Assembly: GCA_951406725.2 (NCBI GenBank)
Contig: OX597818.1
Span: 67,456,001-67,520,000, forward strand
Source of the DNA: Octopus vulgaris
Taxonomy: Eukaryota
Reading direction: 5' to 3'
DNA length: 64,000 nucleotides
Made by a program: the position numbers and the translations under genes. Positions 1,056-62,743 of this stretch are shown piece by piece (the stretch's first letter is position 1; each line of letters begins with the position of its first letter). The notes under the pieces are model-generated. The model worked only from the letters and a program-made list of their open reading frames with translations. It searched no databases and had not been told where the DNA came from.

Positions 1056-4000
1056 GGATGTTCCCTGGGAGCCTCTCTCCAAAAAACGAATTTAATCCAA
1101 CAACATCGTTGCAATGGAAGAAAGGTTCCACAAAATATATTTTCCAAACTTTCTTTTAAGGCAAAGTAACCAAAAAAGTCCGAACTATTATTGCCATATA
1201 TAGTATGGTTTTCTTTCTTTTATGCATAATAATTCCATGTGACATGCATAAGAAATAGAAGCGAACATCAGAGCTCTTGAAAGACAGTAAGTACATAAAT
1301 TAATTAATTAATTAATTAATTAAATAAGTATACATGCAACTGTTTATGCATACACGTAGACATTTTAATTGTAAAGTATACATGCAACTGTTTGTGCATA
1401 CATGTACACATTTTAATTATAAAGCATAAATAATGCATACACGCGCTCACACGTACACACAGAAAAAAAAACCACGTTACGCGGACGAAAACAAAACAAA
1501 AACAAAGCGATTTTTCACGAACAAACGCAAAAAAGAGCAAATTGGTCACTGAATTTAGAAAGTCACTGAACAGTTATGCCCGGAAACATGACTACCAAAA
1601 TAAATAGAGGCGAATTTCGATCTGTAAGTCTTATGCGAGTTCGATATGAACAATATATTAATTCGGAGAATTCAGAAGCGGTGTCTTGTCAAAAAATTGA
1701 CCCTGTACAAACACTCCCTTCTTCTAACGACACCGTCACAGAGGCGGCGTCTTGTCAAAAAGTTGACTCTGAAAAAATGGACCCCTCTGATGTCGCCGTC
1801 AATCATTTAATGAAAACAAGCCAAAAATCATGCCGGATCGGTCATCGCCCGGGACAACAAGGACCGCGTTACCCAGTAGGGAACCAGACTGGGGTCGAAA
1901 AGTTTGCTGCTGGAACAAACTCTCAAAAAGACGATCTACCAGGTGACCAGAACCAGAATACTTCTAACTCTGGACTTGTAGTGACACCACCAAAAACACC
2001 ACCTAAAGCAAAACGTATAAAATGGACCAGAGAGGACTATAGAGATGTGTTGAAAGCTTTTTATACAGCCCAACTAAACCCAAGTAATAACCTCAGTGTA
2101 CAAACATACATCTCATGGAGACATTCAGTAGGCAATGACGTACGTAGATATATAGACGCAAATAAATTAAGTAATGTACGCAGAGATATAATTAAAAACA
2201 AAAGACTAACTGACGCTGAAATTGACAAAATTAGGACACTGATAGCTCATGGTAGACCAAAAGAAAACAGCAACAATGTAGACAAAATAGGTAACAGTAG
2301 CACAGAAGCCAGTGTACAAGCGGCAAATCAACTTCCCAATGGGGAAGTTAAACAAAGAATAGCGAAGACGAGAGATTTGAAAACAGAGGAGAACGTAGAC
2401 CTTCCTCAAGAAAACCAAAATAGATATGACATAGAATTTGAGGTGAATAATAGAGAAAAGATTATGGAAGCAAAAGTGGACATTATGAGAGAACTCGGCA
2501 AGATTGAGCTCACTGAGATGGTTAATAGAGAACCACTACCAAAGTTTTCAAATGGCACAAGAAATAACAACACAATCATGACATATAACGTTGCCCTAGG
2601 ACAGATCTTAAGAAATACGGGGAATGATTTGATAACCTTAAATAATCTCATTTATTCCACTGCTAAAGTAGTAACTACCCAACTAGGTATTAAGATGACA
2701 AAGAAAAAGGCCAGGCATGTCAATGAACCTCCTAAGTGGAAAGTAGCGATACAAAAAGAGATTGAATCTCTGCGGGCGGATGTTTCAGTTCTCGATGAGC
2801 TTGCTAGAGGAGTGAATATTAAGCCGAGAAAAGCTAGAAAAATCAAGCAAAAATATAAAATCAAAGATCTCATAAACCTCCCTGCAACTAAGGAACTGTT
2901 GAAACAACGGATACAGTTGAAAGCTCAACGGCTTAGAAGGTATGACAAAAGAAACAAATTTTATCGACAAAATAAATTTTTTTAAGACAGATGCAAAGAA
3001 ATTTTATTGGGAAATTGGCAAAAATAAAATACACATAGAAGATCCACCTAAGATTGAGGAAGTGGAGGAGTTCTGGAAGAAGGTATGGAGCAACGAAAAA
3101 GCGTTTAATGCTGAGGCTGACTGGATAGAACGTGAGAAAGAGAGACTGGATGAACTTGAAGAACAGAAATGGGAAGCAATAGGAATAGAGGAGCTAAGGT
3201 GTGTCCTTAGGAAGGCTCATAAATGGAAAACCCCAGGACTGGATCGGATCCCTAACTTCTGGCTGAATTGTTTGACAGAGGTACACGAACATCTCGCTGC
3301 ATCTCTGTCTGATGTCATTCAGAACCCAGAGCAAATACCTGCTTGGCTGACTGAAGGAACCACCTACCTATTACCTAAAACCGAAGACACAAAAAACCCA
3401 AAGAATTACCGGCCAATAACATGTCTCAACACCACCTACAAAATCCTCACATCCATAATAACGGAGAGAATGTACGCTTTCCTTGAACAAAATTCTATCC
3501 TTCCACAAGCTCAAAAAGGTTGTAAAAGAAACTCTTATGAGTGCAAAGACCAATTGCTCATAAACAGAATGATTGTAGAGAATTACCGGAGCAAAAACAA
3601 AAACCTGAGTATGGCATGGATAGACTACAGGAAAGCGTATGACAGTGTCCCACATAAATGAATACTCAAGGCCCTTGAGATATACAAGATCTCTCCTGTC
3701 GTCTCAAAATTCTTAGAGAATAGCATGACCATGTGGAACACACGTCTCTTTTTAAGCCATAGTAATGGAATGAGCCAGTCCAACAGCATCAACATCAAAC
3801 GAGGCATCTTTCAAGGTGACTCCCTCTCTCCATTACTTTTTTGCATGGCACTGATCCCACTCTCAAACGAATTGGATAGTACTAGATATGGGTACAAAGT
3901 TTTTAGTAAATTAATAAACCATCTTTTCTATATGGACGACCTAAAGCTGTTTGCCAGGAATGACCAAGAGCTAGAAGGGCTGCTAACAACTGTTAAAGAG

Positions 4001-5637
4001 TTTAGCAATGATATCGGAATGGATTTTGGCCTTGATAAGTGTGCTAAAGCAACTTTTGTAAGAGGCAAGCTCAGGCAAACAGCTTCTGTTAAGTTAGATA
4101 TTGACACTACCATCAAGGAACTTGACCCACAGGAAAGTTACAAATACCTAGGAATCAACGAAGGAGATGGTATACATCATGCTACTATGAAGGAAAAAAT
4201 AAGAAAGGAATACTATAGGAGAATAAGACTTGTACTGAAGACTGAGCTCAACTCCAAAAATTGCATTGAGGCCATTAACACCCTGGCACTTCCAGTAGTC
4301 CAGTACAGTTTTAATATCATTAACTGGAACCTTACGGAACTCCAACGCTTAGACAGGAAGACAAGAAAGTTACTGACATCCAGGAGCATGCACCACCCTA
4401 AGGCAGATGTAGACCGCTTGTACCTACCTAGAAGCAGCGGGGGGAGAGGAATGATGCAATTAGAGCTGTGCTATAAGACCTCTACTGTAGGAATGAACAT
4501 GTACCTATCTAGTACAAAGGACTGGATGCTGCGACTTGTGCGCGAACACGAAAGCAGCAAAAAGCTGCATTCTATTGTCAAGGAAGCTTATAAGTTCGAA
4601 AGGGAACTAGACATTAACCTTGAATCAGATGAAGAGCCGGAAACCACTGCTACCAAGCAAGCAAAGCGAATCAAGCAGACTGCAAAAAAGAACGGGCAGA
4701 ATCAAATTGAGAGGCGGTGGAGCCAGAAGCCCCTGCATGGACAATATATTCTCCGAAGCCAAAATGCTGATGTAGACCAAGCAACAACCCATCAGTGGCT
4801 GAAGAGCTCTGGATTGAAAGCAGAGACTGAAGGTTTCATAATGGCAGCACAAGATCAAAGCTTGTTTACCAGAAATTACCAGGCTAACGTTCTCCGAAAC
4901 GGTACTGACCCTAAATGCAGATTCTGCGACACATTTGACGAAACGATAGACCATCTCGTTTCGGGATGTCCTGTGCTGACACCAAACGAATACAAAAATT
5001 GCCACGATAGGGTAGGACAGTATATACATTGGAAGATATGTAAACACTACAAATCCGACACTCCTGCTAACTGGTACGAACACCATCCTCAGCCAGTTGT
5101 TGAAGGTAAAGATGTCACCATCCTCTGGGATTTTCCAGTCAACACTGACAGAACGATCAAGGCTAATCGACCAGACATAATTGTTAAGGACAGGGAAGAA
5201 AATACCTGCAGACTAATAGAAGTAAGCGTCCCCACTGATAAAAATGTATCTGTCAAGGAATTTGACAAACTTAGTAAATATAAGGACCTGGAAATCGAAA
5301 TACAGAGGATGTGGAATCTTAAAACAAAAACTGTTCCTGTTATTGTAGGTGCCCTAGGTATGATAAAAAAGGGATGTCAGAAACACCTAGACAATATCCC
5401 TGGAAAACCATGTCTCAAGGAAATCCAAAAAATTGTGCTAACAAGTACTGCCCACATCCTTAGAAAAACCCTATCAATGTAAATGTCTGTGTTTGCATTA
5501 CATGGAGATATATCTCTACTTCCCCTCCCCAAGCTTTCAGCTGTATTTCAACAACTCTTAACCTTCACTTGCCCTAGGGCGCTGGGTGTGCCCCGGCAGG
5601 TGATTGCATCAAACATGCAGATTAAAAGTAAATGACA
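1056..5637 (+). mobile_element. R4/Dong-clade non-LTR retrotransposon (single ORF, RT plus restriction-like endonuclease), near full length
   Basis: Flanked on both sides by (AAT)n. RT motifs: PGLD, KNYRPITCL, WIDYRKAYDSVPH, GIFQGDSLSP, YMDD (3929-3940), YKYLG. C-terminal CCHC (CRFC..HLVSGC) and RLE motifs HDRV, RPDI, IEVSVP, KLSKY. Dong elements are known to target (TAA)n. Confidence 0.93.
1576..5482 (+). pseudogene. Retrotransposon polyprotein ORF (~1300 aa if repaired), broken by a +1 frameshift in the T7 run at 2977-2983 and a TGA at 3659-3661
   Basis: ORFs 1576-2985, 2942-3661 and 3725-5482 join into one ORF on deleting one T (NKFFKTD) and reading the TGA as Trp (VPHK*ILKAL). Confidence 0.88.
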
Positions 5638-5661
5638 ATGATAATAATAATAATAATAATA

Positions 5662-6210
<549 letters not shown>

Positions 6211-11489: not shown

Positions 11490-12072
11490 TATACATTCCC
11501 TCCGCCTTTATATAACCTACCACAGCTGCATGGGATGGAATACACGCAGTCTTTGTTCATATTGTCTTCTATTGGTGGTTTTGCTCGAAGGAGATATTTG
11601 CGAAGCGTTGTATTACACTTGAATACTGTCCTGATGTCATATGGGCCTCCTATCTTTTGTATCTTTTCAGTGAGGCCTTTGAAATAGAGTAGACAGACTG
11701 TGGATAGTTTATTGGCCTCATCCTCTCTCTTTTCCAGAATTGGAGTGGAGAGTATGCTTTTGGGGTAGTTCTTGCTTAACAGATCGTTATTGAGCTTAAT
11801 CATTTCTTTGTGGTGTGTATCACGATCGATGCTTATATACTTTGCACGATGTTTTAGTCGCTGAGCAATCCCTCTCTTTACACTGTATGGATGGTGGGAA
11901 TTGAAGTTGAAGTATCGTACAGTGAAGGACGGCTTCCCGCAAGCCGATATACGGAAGTCCCGAATCCATACTTGGTGCGTGTTTTTATTACGTCCAGGAA
12001 TGCCAGGTGATTGTCTTTTTCCTTTTCTATTGTGAGCTGTATGGGTAGATTTATTGAGTTCACATATGACAC
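11490..12072 (-). pseudogene. Penelope-like element relic: RT C-terminus, linker and start of the GIY-YIG endonuclease
   Basis: IQLTIEKEKDNHLAFLDV..FGTSVYR; RYFNFNSHHPYSVKRGI; NYPKSIL; CVYSIPCSCGRLYKG (GIY..YIG-like). Frameshifted. Confidence 0.88.
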
Positions 12073-12188
12073 GAGGAGATATTGATAAATCGGGTATAGC
12101 TGAGCATGTATGGAAAAATGGTGACCCCTCCCCGTGGGATGAAGTTAAAAAAATAGACATAGTACACCACTGAAAAATTCGAAAATTA
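12066..12188 (+). pseudogene. Inverted fragment of the PLE GIY-YIG C-terminal region
   Basis: Plus strand reads TRGDIDKSGIAEHVWKNGD..PWDEVKKID..*KIRKL, matching the S-x-I-A-E-H..W pattern of PLE endonucleases; it abuts the minus-strand piece. Confidence 0.75.
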
Positions 12189-18857: not shown

Positions 18858-19005
18858 ACAGATCTATATTTAAGAGATGTGGAATTATGTACATTATTTA
18901 CATTATTTACATTTGACAGATACTTATCCTCATCTTGTTTGTTGTTAACGCAACATTTCGGCTGATATACCTTCCAGGCATCATCAGGTGCCTTGGGGAA
19001 ATTTG
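18858..19005 (-). mobile_element. Family D hammerhead-bearing tail (HHR at 18947-18992)
   Basis: Minus strand GGCAC-CTGATGA-TGCCTG-gaaggtatat-CAGCC-GAAA-TGTT-GCGTT, followed by the shared tail ACAAGATGAGGATAAGTATCTGTCAAATGTAAATAATG. Confidence 0.85.
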
Positions 19006-19342
19006 GAATCACAGAGTAGTGAAATTGGCCCAACACCTCTCTTGTTTTATTAGTGTCTATGCCTGCGTTAGTGACTGCTCCCGATTTGTGAGGTCTACGC
19101 TAATGCCTTATTTGTTCTTCGAGGCTGTTCTTGTTGTTTTTGCTGATATTATTGTTGATGTTGAGCGGGCTTGTTTGTTTGTTGAGCGAAGCGGTCTTCA
19201 TCCCGTCTGTAGTGGGAGGAGTCCGAAACGTGGTCCTTTGCTATTCGTAAAACCCGCAGATAAGAAAGCAGGTCAACACCCGACATCGAGAGCATCGACG
19301 GATGAATGAATGCGCATCCAGGCTCAGTGGTTGCGTAAGAAG

Positions 19343-20170: not shown

Positions 20171-20648
20171 TAATAATAATGCAGTGAAAGTAGGCTATAA
20201 AAATAAGACTAATGAATCATAATAACAAAGATTTTAAATTTTGGCACAATGGGAAAGAGATGAATATATTATTTTGGGTGAGGGGTTGAACCAATTATAT
20301 CGGCCCCTGTGCCTAACTGGTACTTAATTTATCGAGCCTGAAAGGATGCAAGTCAAAGTGGACCTCTGCGGAATTTGAACTCAGAAGCATTTTTCTGGCA
20401 TGCTAATGATTCTACCTTTATAATAATTATAATAATGGTTTCAAATTTTGACACCAGGACATGAATTTCGGTGGAGGGGATGTGTCGATTACGTCGACCC
20501 CATTGCTTCACTGGTACTTATTTTACTGATCCGGAAAGGATGAATTGAAAAGTCGACCTCGTCAGAATTTGAATTCAGAACGTAGCAGTAGGCGAAATAT
20601 CGCTATGCAGTTTGTCCAGCGCGCTAATGACTCTCCCAGCACATCACC

Positions 20649-27718: not shown

Positions 27719-27894
27719 TTACGTTATTTACATTATTTACATTTGACGAATATTTGTCCTCTTCTTATTGGTTGTTAACACGTTTCTAGTAATATAACCT
27801 CCAGCATTCATTAGGTGTCTTGGGGAGATTACGAACCTGGGTTCCCATTCCTAAAGAATTTTTCGATGTTAATATTATTATTATTATTATTATT

Positions 27895-27952
<58 letters not shown>

Positions 27953-28077
27953 CCATTATTATTGCGTAGTGGTTAAGAGCGCGTGCTACTAACCACAAGC
28001 TTCCGAGTTCGATTGCAGTCAGTGAACTGAGTAATAACAACAACAACAACAACACTAATAATAATAATAATAATGAT

Positions 28078-28138
<61 letters not shown>

Positions 28139-28238
28139 TCGAATTCCCCAAGACACCTGATGGAGGCTGGAGTTTATATCAGCAGAAACGTTGTGTTAAC
28201 AAACAAGATGAAGAGAAATATCCGTCAAATGTAAATAA
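27719..28238. mobile_element. Family D fold-back insertion: inverted partial copy (27719-27960, -) plus tRNA-headed HHR unit (27962-28238, +)
   Basis: Plus unit: GCGTAGTGG..GAGTTCGATT head, (AAT)n, then GACAC-CTGATGG-AGGCTG..CAGCA-GAAA-CGTT-GTGTT at 28152-28197. The left arm is the reverse complement of the tail. Confidence 0.85.
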
Positions 28239-30539
28239 TATGAGATTTTACTATCTAATTCCTTGATAAATATTCAGCGCCAAAGAAAGAAGTGTAGACA
28301 GGATGGCCATCACCAGAATGCATTTGTAAATATAGGTTCTCTCCCTAAAGAATCGACTGGTGACAAAATGCAACAATATAGGTCTGCCACGTGTCCCACA
28401 AGTGCAACAAACAATTCCGCGTTAACCACCTGAAAATATCAATATTCTGGAAAAATGGTATTTTATTAAATATCTTGGAATAATGGAAAATAAAAATAAA
28501 TCAGAATGAAAGAAAATGAAGGTCGAAACAGATCTCCATCGCCATTGTAATGGTCCATTGTTAGCGTTTCAAACTGCTGCTACAAATATAGCTCAGTTTT
28601 GAAATATTATTTTGATCAACATTACAGTGCCATTTTTATGTAAGGACGCACACGTGTGTGTGTGTATGCGTGTGCGTGTGTGTGTGCTTGTGTTTGCGCG
28701 TCTATGTGCGCGTGTGCCTGTGTATGTGTATGCACATATTATACAAACTGAATGATGATGATGACGATGATGATGATAATGAGAAACAATAATTGAAATG
28801 TGGATAACAACAGCTGGAGACGAGATACTAACATTAAAAGTATATTATACCGAAAATGTATAGAATTGTTCCAGAAAGAATGCTCTATAACCTTTGCATG
28901 TGACATATTAATACTTATTTTCTATACAACTGCTTATAACCAGAAGGGGAAAAAAAACAACTTCAAAGTCGTCAACACTGCTATTAACATAGTCATCGAT
29001 GATAGATCAATATTGAACTGAGCCAAAATTCAAAGCGATTCTTGCAGACAGTTCAGACAATACCAAAATAGGGTAAAGGAAACAATATATACCAAATATC
29101 AAGTATTGAATAACAATTCGTGCATTTTTGGTAAAAGGCCACATGTTTTTACAAGAAGGATCAGTCTACCACCGTAGTAGAGTGTTAGATATCTAAATGC
29201 TGTTCCATGCTAGAGTATATATTCTATAGAGATTTTAGTTAACTCGAGGGATGCAGAAGTGACAGATGCATTTGATACTGCTCATTAGAGAATCGTAATG
29301 CAGCTATAGTTATTTTCTTTTACAACGAATCAGTAATTCCTTGCATATTTCAGCGGCCACAAAAGCACAAAGTTAATATTGGCAATATTTGAAACTAGGA
29401 TCTGAAGAATAATTCTTAAATATCGGAGAGCTTTTTCTGTTCTACAAATTTTAAAGGTGTATTATTTTAAATTATATAAAGAGACAACAAAAATACGTTT
29501 ATCACCCTAGTATGAATGTAATTATTTTAAATGTTATTTCTTTCCCCATAGACTTCCTTAAAAACATTTTGATAAAATATTCTCGTTAATTTTAATTATA
29601 TACACTACAGATAATTTGTCTCCCCTTGTGAAATATAGGCACATGAAATATTTGAGTAAAAAACGACTTTGATAAAGAATTTCCGCTTCCTTTCTCTTGG
29701 CTATTATTTTGGCAAATAAGTTGTGTTAATTACATACACAGTTTTTGAAAGGAAATTTGCAAGAGACGGGAAGGTATGCACAATGGTTCCACACCGCATA
29801 ATTTGAGTTTGGGGCTGAATCAAATGTTTTGCAATATTTTGGTAACTTATTTGCTTCTTTTGTCAACTTACAAAAAAGTGCAGCCTAGTATTCAAAATAG
29901 AAGCGATTGTGTTGCACTGTGTGAGGCAACTTTTCTCTCAGTTATTTTATCCGGCTCTGATATCAGTTCTTAATTTTCGAGGCGAAGAACTACTTCACTG
30001 AAACTACCACCTCTTCTTGTGTGACCAAGTGTTTCGAAATAGTAACCAAACCTCCTTGAGGTTGCTCTTGACATCTTTAATCAAGAAAGCTATAAACTCA
30101 TTACGTAGCGATAAAATAATGCAATCTTGAACAAAAAATCTCTAAATGAGAGATGAACTGTTCACAGCTTGGTTATAACTTAGATTATTTCTATTTCTAT
30201 ATTTGTAATTCTGTTTGGTCTGGATCAAAATTGACTTGTTTCTATATAATAACACACACTCATATGTAGAAACTATTTGTCTAAACGCAGTTTTTTTCTA
30301 ACACAAACATGTTCAAGAGAATTGGTAAAAATAAATATTTCAAGTTTGAAACTCGTGATCCCTATTCTTTTTTTTTCTTTGAAGTAAGTTATGTTTATCA
30401 AGAAAAGCTCTCCCTTGTGACAATTTTCAAAAATTCGTTAATATAATTTTGAATGTATGGTGGTTATCAATATATTCATAACTGCCAATACATGGAAAGA
30501 TTTTATCTACATTATCACTAATATACTATAAATTCGCTT

Positions 30540-49758: not shown

Positions 49759-50381
49759 ATATCAAATTAAAGTTATTGAACAAACAAATGCAAGGTCATC
49801 CGCATATCATTTCATAATTCGAACATTTAATCATAGAATATACATATAAACATCCCACAAGATGGAACATAATTCATCTGTACAAGCAGACAAGCATATA
49901 ATAATAATAAGGTGCGGGAAAAAAATACACCTCTGAAATGGCCATAGGGATAAGGCTTCTATTACTTGAATAATTATTTAAAAAGATTTCTAAACGATGA
50001 ACTTTCATTTTATTTACATGATATATATTATATATTTTTTTTATACTACTATATATATATATATATTTTATATATTTTTATATACATATATATTTTTATA
50101 TATTACTTTATATTATAGTTTTACTTTCTAGGTGTTGTAAGGTTTTTTTATTAAAAATGTATTTTTCTGAATCGCTAAAGTATTAACTCTAAACAGTGAT
50201 GAAAAAAAAAGAATTTTTCTCGCACCTTATTATAATCATTATATGCTTGTATGCTTGTACAGATGAATTATGTTCCATCTTGCGGGATGGTTATATGTAT
50301 ATTCTAAGATTAAATGTTCGAATTATGAAAGGATATGCGGATGACCTTGCATTTGTTTGTTCAATAACTTTAGTTTGATAT
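49759..50381. repeat. Long inverted repeat: ~165-bp arms (49759-49925 / 50213-50381) around an AT-rich spacer
   Basis: The arms are clear reverse complements, e.g. AACAAACAAATGCAAGGTCATCCGCATATC / GATATGCGGATGACCTTGCATTTGTTTGTT. Confidence 0.9.
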
Positions 50382-56326: not shown

Positions 56327-56467
56327 TCTATATTTAAGAGATGAGAAATTACGTACAATATTTACATTATTTACATTTGACGGATATTTATCCTCATCTT
56401 GTTTGTTGTGTGAACAACGAACAACATGAGATAAATATCCGTCAAATGTAAATAATGTAAATAATGA
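56327..56467. mobile_element. Family D collapsed fold-back (two inverted tail ends) nested inside a SINE C copy (~56280-56630)
   Basis: TTTACATTATTTACATTTGACGGATATTTATC..GATAAATATCCGTCAAATGTAAATAATGTAAA, with a SINE C head upstream and the SINE C body downstream. Confidence 0.8.
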
Positions 56468-60582: not shown

Positions 60583-62026
60583 CTTTTATTAGAGAGAGTA
60601 CATGGAGCGCACGTCTATGAAAAGCTTAAGTACTTGTTAGATTTGCTTTTCCAGACAGAGCAAGTACATGGTCTGTGAGTCCTTCGAGCTCTTTGAAATT
60701 TACATGAAAATGAATGCGAACATGCATCACTTCAGTGGCACAAACTCTGGAACAGGAGCTAGAACACTATATTTTTATGTAGTCATTCCAGACATGGATA
60801 GGCCACCACTTGCTTCCGAGGTCATGAAAGAGATATCCAGGGAAATTTTCCAATTTAATATTCTGAACGTGATTCGAATAGTGACATAAATACTACATCT
60901 GAACAATCCAGTGAGGTTTCTCCTTCATTCCAGTGAAAAACACTCAAAGGTTTAAAAATGTCAACCATTCAATTAGTTACTTTCTGTTTCTGTTCATTTT
61001 TTTTTACTTCCATTTCTTAGGACCTCATGTGAGGATATTGGCATCCTTTGCACTAGGATGTTTCATGGAATTAATTAATTTTTTGTTGATTTCAAGAGCC
61101 TCATTGCGAAAGTCCCAATAATGTCCCACCCAGCACATTTGAATAGATACATTTCCTTTATAAAGTGCTTAAACTTGTGCGCATTTTATGTTTCCGACTC
61201 AAATAGTTTCTTTATAATAGAGTATAACCCTTGACAAATTTTCCTGTTGGCTGCTCCTTGTGCATCTCTTGCACAAATGGCATGTGATGCACATCTCTCA
61301 TTTATCTGAAACTATTCGCAATGACACATTTCAATTTTTGTATTTTTCATTGACATTGGGTTTAAAATATTGAGCAAGAATTTGGGCATGACGTACCTGA
61401 TCCGTTTTAAACAGTTAGACATTCTTGAATCATATTCTACAAAACAGTCTGCACATTTCCTTTCCCGAAACCGTTACTCTTTTATGCTCTTTCGTATAAC
61501 TTCACTTTAGAATCATTCTCTAAGTCTTGCTCTGTGGCTACTTATGAATAATACTGAACTGCAAAAAGACAGCAAATTCCAAGCTTTTAACCTTTTAGGA
61601 CGTGTACGAAAACATGTGTTCGAAAACTGAAAAGCAAATAATCAATAAGCGACATTCTTACAATAAGGATAATGGGCAGGGCAGAATGTTGGGCTGGTCA
61701 TAGAATTATAGACTTGTGTGGACCAATGTAGTATCACATTTAAATCAAATATTAAGTATGGACTTTCATTCCATACAGATATATACGGGAAAAACATGTA
61801 CCACCATTAAGTTCAGCTACCCTACTTGTATGATGGGAACATGTCTCCGAAAATGCAAGTGAGGATAACTACGGGGAAACTGTTTCGTAAACCTAAGCTT
61901 AATTACCCAGATTATACCTTCACATTCATACTACCAAAAACAGTGCACTTGGGTTTATAACTAAATGCCAACGTGGCAGCTTGAAAATGCTAGGATTTTC
62001 AAAAATGTAATTAACCAATTAACATG

Positions 62027-62237
62027 CAGTTCTATATTTAAGAGATGAGGAATTATGTACATTATGTACATTATGTACATTATTTACATTATTTACATTT
62101 GCCGGATATTTGTCCTCATCTTGTTTATTGTTAACACAAAGTTCCGGCTGATATACCTTCAAGCTTTCTTCAGATGTCTTGGGGAAATTTCAAATTTGGG
62201 TTCTCATTCCTTAGGCATATTTTGATGTTATTGTTAT

Positions 62238-62289
<52 letters not shown>

Positions 62290-62352
62290 ACTACTACTAC
62301 TACTGCTACCACCAACAACACTATTACTACTACTACTATTACTTATTATTAA

Positions 62353-62400
<48 letters not shown>

Positions 62401-62566
62401 CATTCAAGTCACTGCTTGGAATCGAACTCGGAATCTCGGGGTTAGCAGCCCACGCCATTAACCACTACACCATATCCCCATGGGTATATCAGCCGAAACG
62501 TTGTATTAACAACAAACAAAACGATGACAAATATCCGTCAAATATAAGTAAAGTAAATAAAGTACA
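62027..62566. mobile_element. Family D: tRNA-headed HHR unit (62480->62027, -) plus inverted partial tail (62482-62566, +)
   Basis: Minus-strand head TGGTGTAGTGG (A box)..GGGCTGCTAACCC..GAGTTCGATTCC (B box); (AAT)n/(AGT)n; HHR relic GACAT-CTGAAGA..CAGCC-GGAA-CTTT-GTGTT at 62133-62178. The plus arm starts GGGTATATCAGCCGAAACGTTGT. Confidence 0.88.
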
Positions 62567-62743
62567 ACCAACATGCAGATTACAACTACAATCTCTAAAC
62601 AGAACAGTAAAAATATGAAAGAGTTTTCTAAAGTAAACTTATGATACTTTGTTATCTACTTTCCGAAGACAGAAACACGTATCTTTGTTAGAAATCAGCA
62701 CCTACTTACAAGAAGACTTGAGATAATTAGAAACAGGAGCAAA

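Follow-up and report, generated by a model that had tools for sequence, protein, structure and literature searches.

SINEs are usually paired with LINEs. PLEs, the Penelope elements, nick and prime on both strands of the target, starting from internal sites in the RNA (PMC11167929). In Anolis PAc the ORF begins at stem II. Each strand of the target is nicked and extended by reverse transcription, which initiates internally, 111-118 nt into the ORF, with the tail situated between two start sites (PMC11167929). A tail at one end is a mark of PLE insertions, with described tails of 30-40 nt (PMC8557442, PMC3846280), and Adineta PLEs are flanked by TSDs of 8-10 bp (PMC3846280). In Schistosoma, pairs of hammerhead motifs are found 100-700 bp apart on opposite strands (PMC4209133). 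Retrozymes have been described as PLE derivatives and proposed as users of PLE enzymes (bioRxiv 10.64898/2026.07.22.740005, PMC7229834), and further non-autonomous examples include MRC1 (PMC8557442) and the short Heliconius Penelopes (PMC6685494). The origin of the tandem and inverted structures of PLEs has been named an open problem (PMC8557442). For Octopus vulgaris, 893 of 900 recently active SINE families stand unclassified in the annotation (PMC13282606).

The stretch of O. vulgaris DNA analyzed here (the window, 64,000 nt) is AT-rich, with a GC content of 26-41% per 2 kb, and dense in microsatellites and dispersed repeats. One of these repeats, family D, is probably a tRNA-type-headed, non-autonomous unit mobilized by PLE-type machinery, in effect a Penelope-mobilized SINE. 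Searching the window by blastn with the three loci named in an initial annotation yields seven arms at four loci:

27720-27956, minus strand: head-less inverted arm, with body (27720-~27868) and microsatellite.
27960-28239, plus strand: headed unit of the 27.7 kb locus, paired with 27720-27956(-).
27960-28033, plus strand: tRNA-like Pol III head of this unit, A box at 27962, B box 45 nt on.
28034-28135, plus strand: internal (AAC/AAT)n microsatellite between head and body, at the same position in the 62 kb unit.
28136-28239, plus strand: pLTR-like body of the same unit, with a ~34-nt internal deletion and tail-less.
62030-62476, minus strand: full unit of the 62 kb locus, with head (~62400-62476, A box from 62472), microsatellite, body, hammerhead remnant (62133-62178), 9-nt repeats and ~25-nt tail (62030-62054).
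62482-62564, plus strand: inverted, 5'-truncated, tail-less arm, beginning in the stem II loop.
56328-56409, minus strand: short tailed arm, paired with 56405-56466(+).
56405-56466, plus strand: short tail-less arm, overlapping the tailed arm at 56405-56409.
18861-19009, minus strand: solo copy truncated at its 5' end, carrying a tail and a hammerhead remnant (18947-18992).

Full units (62030-62476(-) and 27960-28239(+)) run from the head through an (AAT)n-type linker to the body and measure about 300-450 nt. No RT/GIY-YIG ORF is present in any family D locus, and tandem units are found at none of the four. Arm lengths are 237/280 nt at 27.7 kb, 447/83 nt at 62 kb and 82/62 nt at 56.4 kb, with 149 nt for the solo copy. 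In all three inverted pairs the 3' ends point outward, bearing out the initial claim that three of the four loci are fold-backs, and the 56327-56467 stretch is indeed a fold-back, made of two short arms. Two other parts of that description need amendment. The geometry at 62027-62566 is an inverted pair as stated but mirrored, the headed unit lying on the minus strand. At 27.7 kb, where the head is confined to the plus arm, the opposing arm is inverted and head-less but is no plain subset of the headed unit, as it includes the microsatellite, has ~34 nt absent from the plus arm and extends ~12 nt further at its 3' end.

Chance adjacency had been named as an objection to the fold-backs. Three tail-out pairs within 500 nt arose in 1 of 200,000 random placements of the seven arms, so the inverted pairs stand above chance. 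In a masked self-comparison of the window, five other multi-copy groups (14, 6, 5, 4, and 4 merged regions) show no inverted pairs within 1 kb. The same comparison returned 10 close pairs, three of them inverted: two from family D and a two-copy pair at 49.8/50.3 kb; it missed the 56.4 kb hairpin, which was found by blastn. The two-copy repeat (49759-50381; 152 nt, 95% complementary, 319-nt AT-rich spacer) is unrelated to family D and possibly the remnant of a DNA transposon.

Both heads contain an A box and a B box spaced 45 nt apart, and the head at 27.7 kb is 78% identical to that at 62.4 kb. A consensus scan for combined A and B boxes found 10 matches in the window compared with 0.77 per shuffled window, several of them being other SINE heads with the same spacing. 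The family D head occurs twice in the window and is joined to the body both times; neither headed unit contains a T4 run, the first such run lying past the 3' end in both. The label "tRNA-headed" given initially is justified by the boxes, but no tRNA is called: ARAGORN reports no tRNA gene in the window at default settings and does not return the heads at -ps 95, 90 or 85, and Rfam searches of the whole window and of two 600-nt stretches give no tRNA match. The head can be called tRNA-like at most, with the A and B boxes as the sole basis for the name.

Other tRNA-headed SINE families lie at 275, 12709, 43902, and 47864 (minus strand), with A-B spacings of 44-45, and serve as a control for the absence of inversion. 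A few bases at the boundary between head and microsatellite (28025-28040, 62395-62410) nearly match those at the 3' end of a LINE in the window (6075-6095); head and (AAT)n may originally have formed an independent mini-SINE, which then inserted upstream of a pLTR. Just upstream of the hammerhead, the body contains a further stretch resembling a B box (27827-27850(-), 62187-62210(-)), and the homology of the solo copy stops there.

In the body, two hammerhead core boxes flank a stem. A majority consensus built from the arms in the window, with 4-5 copies behind it, passes a strict type I descriptor in six of six tie resolutions, whereas a looser version is passed by none of 200,000 shuffles. 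The consensus pairs 5 bp in stem I and 6 bp in stem II, leaves a single base unpaired after A9, has G-C as its first pair, and forms a palindromic helix III of two bases (CG); these traits are those given for the minimal hammerheads of PLEs (PMC4209133). Two remnants lie at the 27.7 kb locus:

28152-28197, plus strand: minimal type I hammerhead remnant, predicted cut after 28192; its two defects make it the best in the window.
~27777-27819, minus strand: broken hammerhead remnant, with a core change and a 3-nt loss at the cleavage triplet.

The strict descriptor has no match in the raw window, so no single copy passes (none in 200 shuffles either). In relaxed scans of the window, a family D copy is the single 2-defect match (0.025 expected per shuffled window), one of two 3-defect matches (0.175 expected), and one of seven 4-defect matches (4.1 expected). 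Because no copy passes the strict scan and the relaxed matches carry two to four defects, the genomic copies are decayed and probably inactive. Across the seven arms, 81.6% of the cells are paired, compared with 25-44% when the pairing is slid; covariation among these seven does not exceed that of shuffles (123/500). Rfam, run on the whole window and on two 600-nt stretches, reports no hammerhead and gives sub-threshold matches to microsatellites and hairpins. Judged by its sequence, the body carries a decayed minimal type I hammerhead of the Penelope pseudo-LTR kind.

The 3' end consists of two to five 9-nt repeats followed, in three of the seven arms, by a conserved extension of ~24-26 nt; the remaining four stop earlier. 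This tail is one-sided in two of the three pairs (56.3 kb and 62.0 kb) and is missing from both 27.7 kb arms. In agreement with the initial annotation, poly(A) is absent after all seven arm ends. The tail of the solo copy reaches its end 122 nt past the core ATG and ~117 nt past the start of stem II, a position that by analogy resembles the start of reverse transcription in PAc, with no sequence homology between the two. The initial reading had also found no TSD. This is correct for 27.7 kb (93 of 400 random flank pairs score as high) and 56.3 kb (53 of 400), and the solo copy at 18861-19009 has none either (scores 11 and 9), but at 62027-62566 there is a duplication of 9-14 bp:

62016-62029, plus strand: left TSD copy, with the exact 9-mer at 62021-62029, whose innermost 1-3 bases may be part of the tail.
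62565-62578, plus strand: right TSD copy, with the exact 9-mer at 62570-62578.

These flanks match at 12 of 14 bases, nine of them exact, a score reached by 1 of 400 random flank pairs. As the duplication encloses both arms, it argues for insertion of the 62 kb pair in one event.

Several features support the proposal of PLE-like integration, more strongly than the evidence first offered for it: the minimal hammerhead is of the pLTR type, the 3' tail is optional, and an inverted pair whose junction is palindromic sits within a 9-bp TSD, as in Adineta Pen2a (PMC3846280). The opposition originally drawn to LINE-type TPRT was overstated, as PLEs also nick and prime on target DNA. In the proposed model, family D is a tRNA-type Pol III head and (AAT)n linker fused to a PLE pseudo-LTR, the latter comprising a minimal hammerhead, an AC-rich stretch, the 9-nt repeats and the optional tail of ~25 nt. 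Pol III would transcribe the unit, and a PLE RT/GIY-YIG protein would bind the pLTR part in trans and place a nick in each strand of an AT-rich target, with a few bases between the nicks. Each nick would prime cDNA at either of two internal sites in the RNA, so that the tail is included or left out. The two cDNAs would stop variably and be joined at a short microhomology, giving an inverted pair inside one TSD, while priming from a single nick would give a solo copy.

How did the two arms of a pair arise? Dual priming of this kind has an even chance of being the route to inversion. Alternatively, the same element and the same PLE enzyme may have been at work while the inversion came from self-priming, in which the strand snaps back at a palindrome and copies itself, as modeled in PMC3846280; this is unlikely overall and fares differently at the three junctions. 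Palindromes, which such a model uses, occur at two of the three junctions, with none at 27.7 kb. One of them is at 62 kb:

62477-62484, no strand: perfect 8-bp palindrome at the inversion junction.

At this locus the short arm is also a strict subset of the long arm, and the structure is compatible with dual priming and snap-back alike. The 56.4 kb junction fits the joining of two cDNAs better. Its arms overlap by a 5-nt microhomology (56405-56409), and the 4-nt hairpin loop reads in the sense of the tail-less plus arm with one mismatch of four but mismatches at all four positions in antisense. With a loop in the tail-less sense the tailed arm could not have been the template, and the tail-less arm could not have supplied the tail. 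At 27.7 kb each arm has sequence absent from the other, which would fit two cDNAs from opposite nicks joined at microhomology and speaks against self-copying; the two arms have two private substitutions in common, which none of the other arm pairs (21 in all) does (P=0.018 for this pair), a finding that speaks for PLE-type mobilization and is also in keeping with snap-back. Later deletions could rescue the self-priming model by explaining the exceptions. Overall identity is uninformative on one event versus two, the values within loci (85.7, 85.3, and 95.2%) falling inside the range between loci (78.5-95.3%). The microhomology at 56405-56409 spans the predicted ribozyme cut position, and some copies may start at the cut; this bracketing is seen at one of three junctions, and a local hairpin explains it equally well. 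In vitro, PAc needed no cleavage (PMC11167929).

A more distant alternative is a LINE-mobilized SINE that captured a pLTR, the pairs resulting from secondary insertion, twin priming or rearrangement. The head is typical of SINEs, with the A-B spacing of the other SINE heads in the window, and the variable 9-nt repeats stand near the 3' end as in this reading they might. No PLE partner was found in two protein searches with the reading frames of the body, which are weak negatives (19 and 123 candidates, none with E<=10). The arrangement of the copies makes this reading improbable: the other dispersed families of the window lack close inverted pairs, whereas all three family D pairs are tail-out and one sits inside a single TSD. 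Twin priming on one unit inverts the upstream segment and leaves the 3' end unduplicated, so that it would not produce the duplicated 3' ends seen here. The conserved tail, moreover, comes after the 9-nt repeats, and family D has no match to the LINE in the window (best E 0.11), the 3' end included, this being the one long LINE present. The window also holds coding remnants of both element classes:

11504-12188, both strands: PLE coding remnant, 60% identical to P0002, with an RT bearing a DKG motif followed by a GIY-YIG-like region.
1570-6210 (1.1-6.1 kb in the comparison with family D): broken LINE, with RVT_1 matches at ~1.6-5.5 kb, RT, a C-terminal zinc/nuclease region and a long (TAA)n end.

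The LINE is presumably R4/Dong-like, and a short copy of its 3' end lies within (AAT)n at ~20185-20225. The first remnant is assigned to the PLEs by features given in PMC8557442. It is itself inverted: residues 298-487 of P0002 align to the minus strand (12078-11504), residues 504-546 to the plus strand (12066-12188), and the two 3' ends point outward, an arrangement like a twin-priming product. Its presence in the window speaks for the PLE-type reading of family D. Family D and this remnant have no DNA match.

Inverted arms within one TSD would also be expected of a MITE, or of a fold-back DNA transposon whose terminal inverted repeats are long, but this origin is very improbable. Arm length varies from 62 to 447 nt, and this variability excludes a fixed-arm MITE; the two outer ends of a pair are unequal, one 5'-truncated arm stands alone, the loci have no spacer in common, and both a hammerhead and a Pol III head are found in the arms. 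Fold-backs are also a known type of artefact, but an assembly or library origin from palindromic chimeric reads is scarcely credible, since divergence of 5-15% between arms, indels included, excludes a read artefact, one pair lies inside a TSD, and the inverted arrangement recurs in library proteins.

The PLE-type reading can be followed beyond the window in these proteins. A profile of the open frame in the body has 27 matches among 1.84 billion proteins, read here as chance ORFs over repeat copies; P0042, P0048, and P0051 were dropped as unrelated repeats, and 11 of the remaining 24 have too little upstream sequence for a test of inversion. Most D-type matches begin inside the unit and so yield no inversion frequency. 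One protein, P0032, has antisense family D (residues 49-82) followed by sense (79-105) in one frame, each with E of about 4e-6, a fold-back detected by tblastn only, as its codon-compatibility test failed (27 of 60 shuffles). Six matches (P0034, P0047, P0049, P0052, P0053, and P0054) form a sister family with no copy in the window. In five of them the units lie 41-43 codons (~125-130 nt) apart in tandem, and in three of the four with testable upstream sequence a piece compatible with the antisense stands in front (0, 0, and 1 of 60 shuffles; 3 of 60 for the fourth). This would be the classic partial tandem plus inversion of PLEs and suggests a retrozyme-like relative. At the facing stem II codons W and Q are found in 8 of 12 spans of family D, whereas the sister family has R and R in 3 of 12 (one of the 12 being a junction piece) and otherwise mostly products of CpG decay. 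As far as amino acids can tell, R..R versus W..Q implies a compensatory swap of C-G for U-A in stem II.

Two other library proteins contain family D fused in frame to foreign sequence: P0041 to a LINE RT piece matching 3164-3367 of the window, and P0029 to a stretch that we take to be dystrophin/dystrobrevin-like. Scans of GTDB contigs gave no match and then one, a Lachnospiraceae record with unrelated flanks that was set aside as chance.

The inverted pairs were also expected to yield long dsRNA as a potential ADAR substrate, which amounts to a folding prediction. This applies to read-through RNA, which is predicted to fold into long duplexes at three loci (z -17.0, -13.5, and -8.1; 0/100, 0/200, and 0/100 shuffles), but would not apply to the element's own Pol III transcript. 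At both headed loci the inverted arm is upstream of the head, so this transcript would be single-armed and have no fold-back. Duplex formation would pair away the ribozyme. Repeat-directed editing is documented in coleoids, with data mainly from squid (PMC9068888). Family D would seed near-perfect hairpins in a lineage with widespread repeat-directed A-to-I editing (PMC9068888, mainly squid).

It is possible, at a little below an even chance, that family D represents a SINE class with a PLE rather than a LINE as its partner, in which the tRNA promoter spares the tandem upstream copy of the pLTR and the insertions record both-strand priming from two RNA starts. If true, a headed repeat with a PLE terminus and PLE-like insertion would be a new SINE pairing, one that repeat libraries labeling by head alone would hide, and both-strand priming from two RNA starts would explain the origin of inverted pLTRs and one-sided tails. 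A short dispersed family also offers many natural reaction products, in which counts of arm ends, junction loops and TSDs can tell dual priming from self-priming. The inverted tail-out geometry is textbook Penelope and already known. A dispersed element joining a tRNA-type head to a PLE terminus was not encountered in a literature mostly without subscription papers and repeat databases, and the accessible parts of PMC8967140 and PMC10886601 contain nothing on this SINE family question. As far as these searches reach the chimera of tRNA head and pLTR is new; family D may already be catalogued under a SINE name.

Of the known systems, the LINE-mobilized tRNA-derived SINEs resemble family D in their A/B-box head and as short, non-coding, dispersed elements with 5'-truncated copies. 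In contrast to them, family D has a pLTR-like 3' part, lacks a poly(A) or terminal simple repeat and is frequently duplicated in inverted orientation. The SINE-like Sm-alpha and Sj-alpha repeats of Schistosoma have the same order of Pol III promoter followed by hammerhead (PMC6765202); they are described as tandem, and the available text does not mention a PLE-type tail or inverted insertion (PMC6765202). Non-autonomous PLE derivatives and the non-LTR retrozymes of animals are likewise non-coding and carry a type I hammerhead (PMC7229834, bioRxiv 10.64898/2026.07.22.740005). The retrozymes form tandem repeats with mostly canonical hammerheads, whereas family D occurs as dispersed monomers and inverted pairs with a tRNA head; the words "tRNA" and "promoter" have no occurrence in the accessible text of bioRxiv 10.64898/2026.07.22.740005. 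The EN+ PLEs (Penelope/Poseidon, Adineta Pen2a, and Anolis PAc) share with family D a minimal type I hammerhead in the terminal repeat (PMC4209133), a head-to-head inverted 5'-truncated copy with an optional tail at one end (PMC3846280, PMC8557442), and TSDs of ~9 bp, palindromic junctions and AT-rich targets (PMC3846280, PMC11167929). Differently from these elements, family D has no ORF, measures about 300-450 nt with a tail of about 25 rather than 30-40 nt, and bears a Pol III head in place of a pLTR promoter or an upstream tandem partner.
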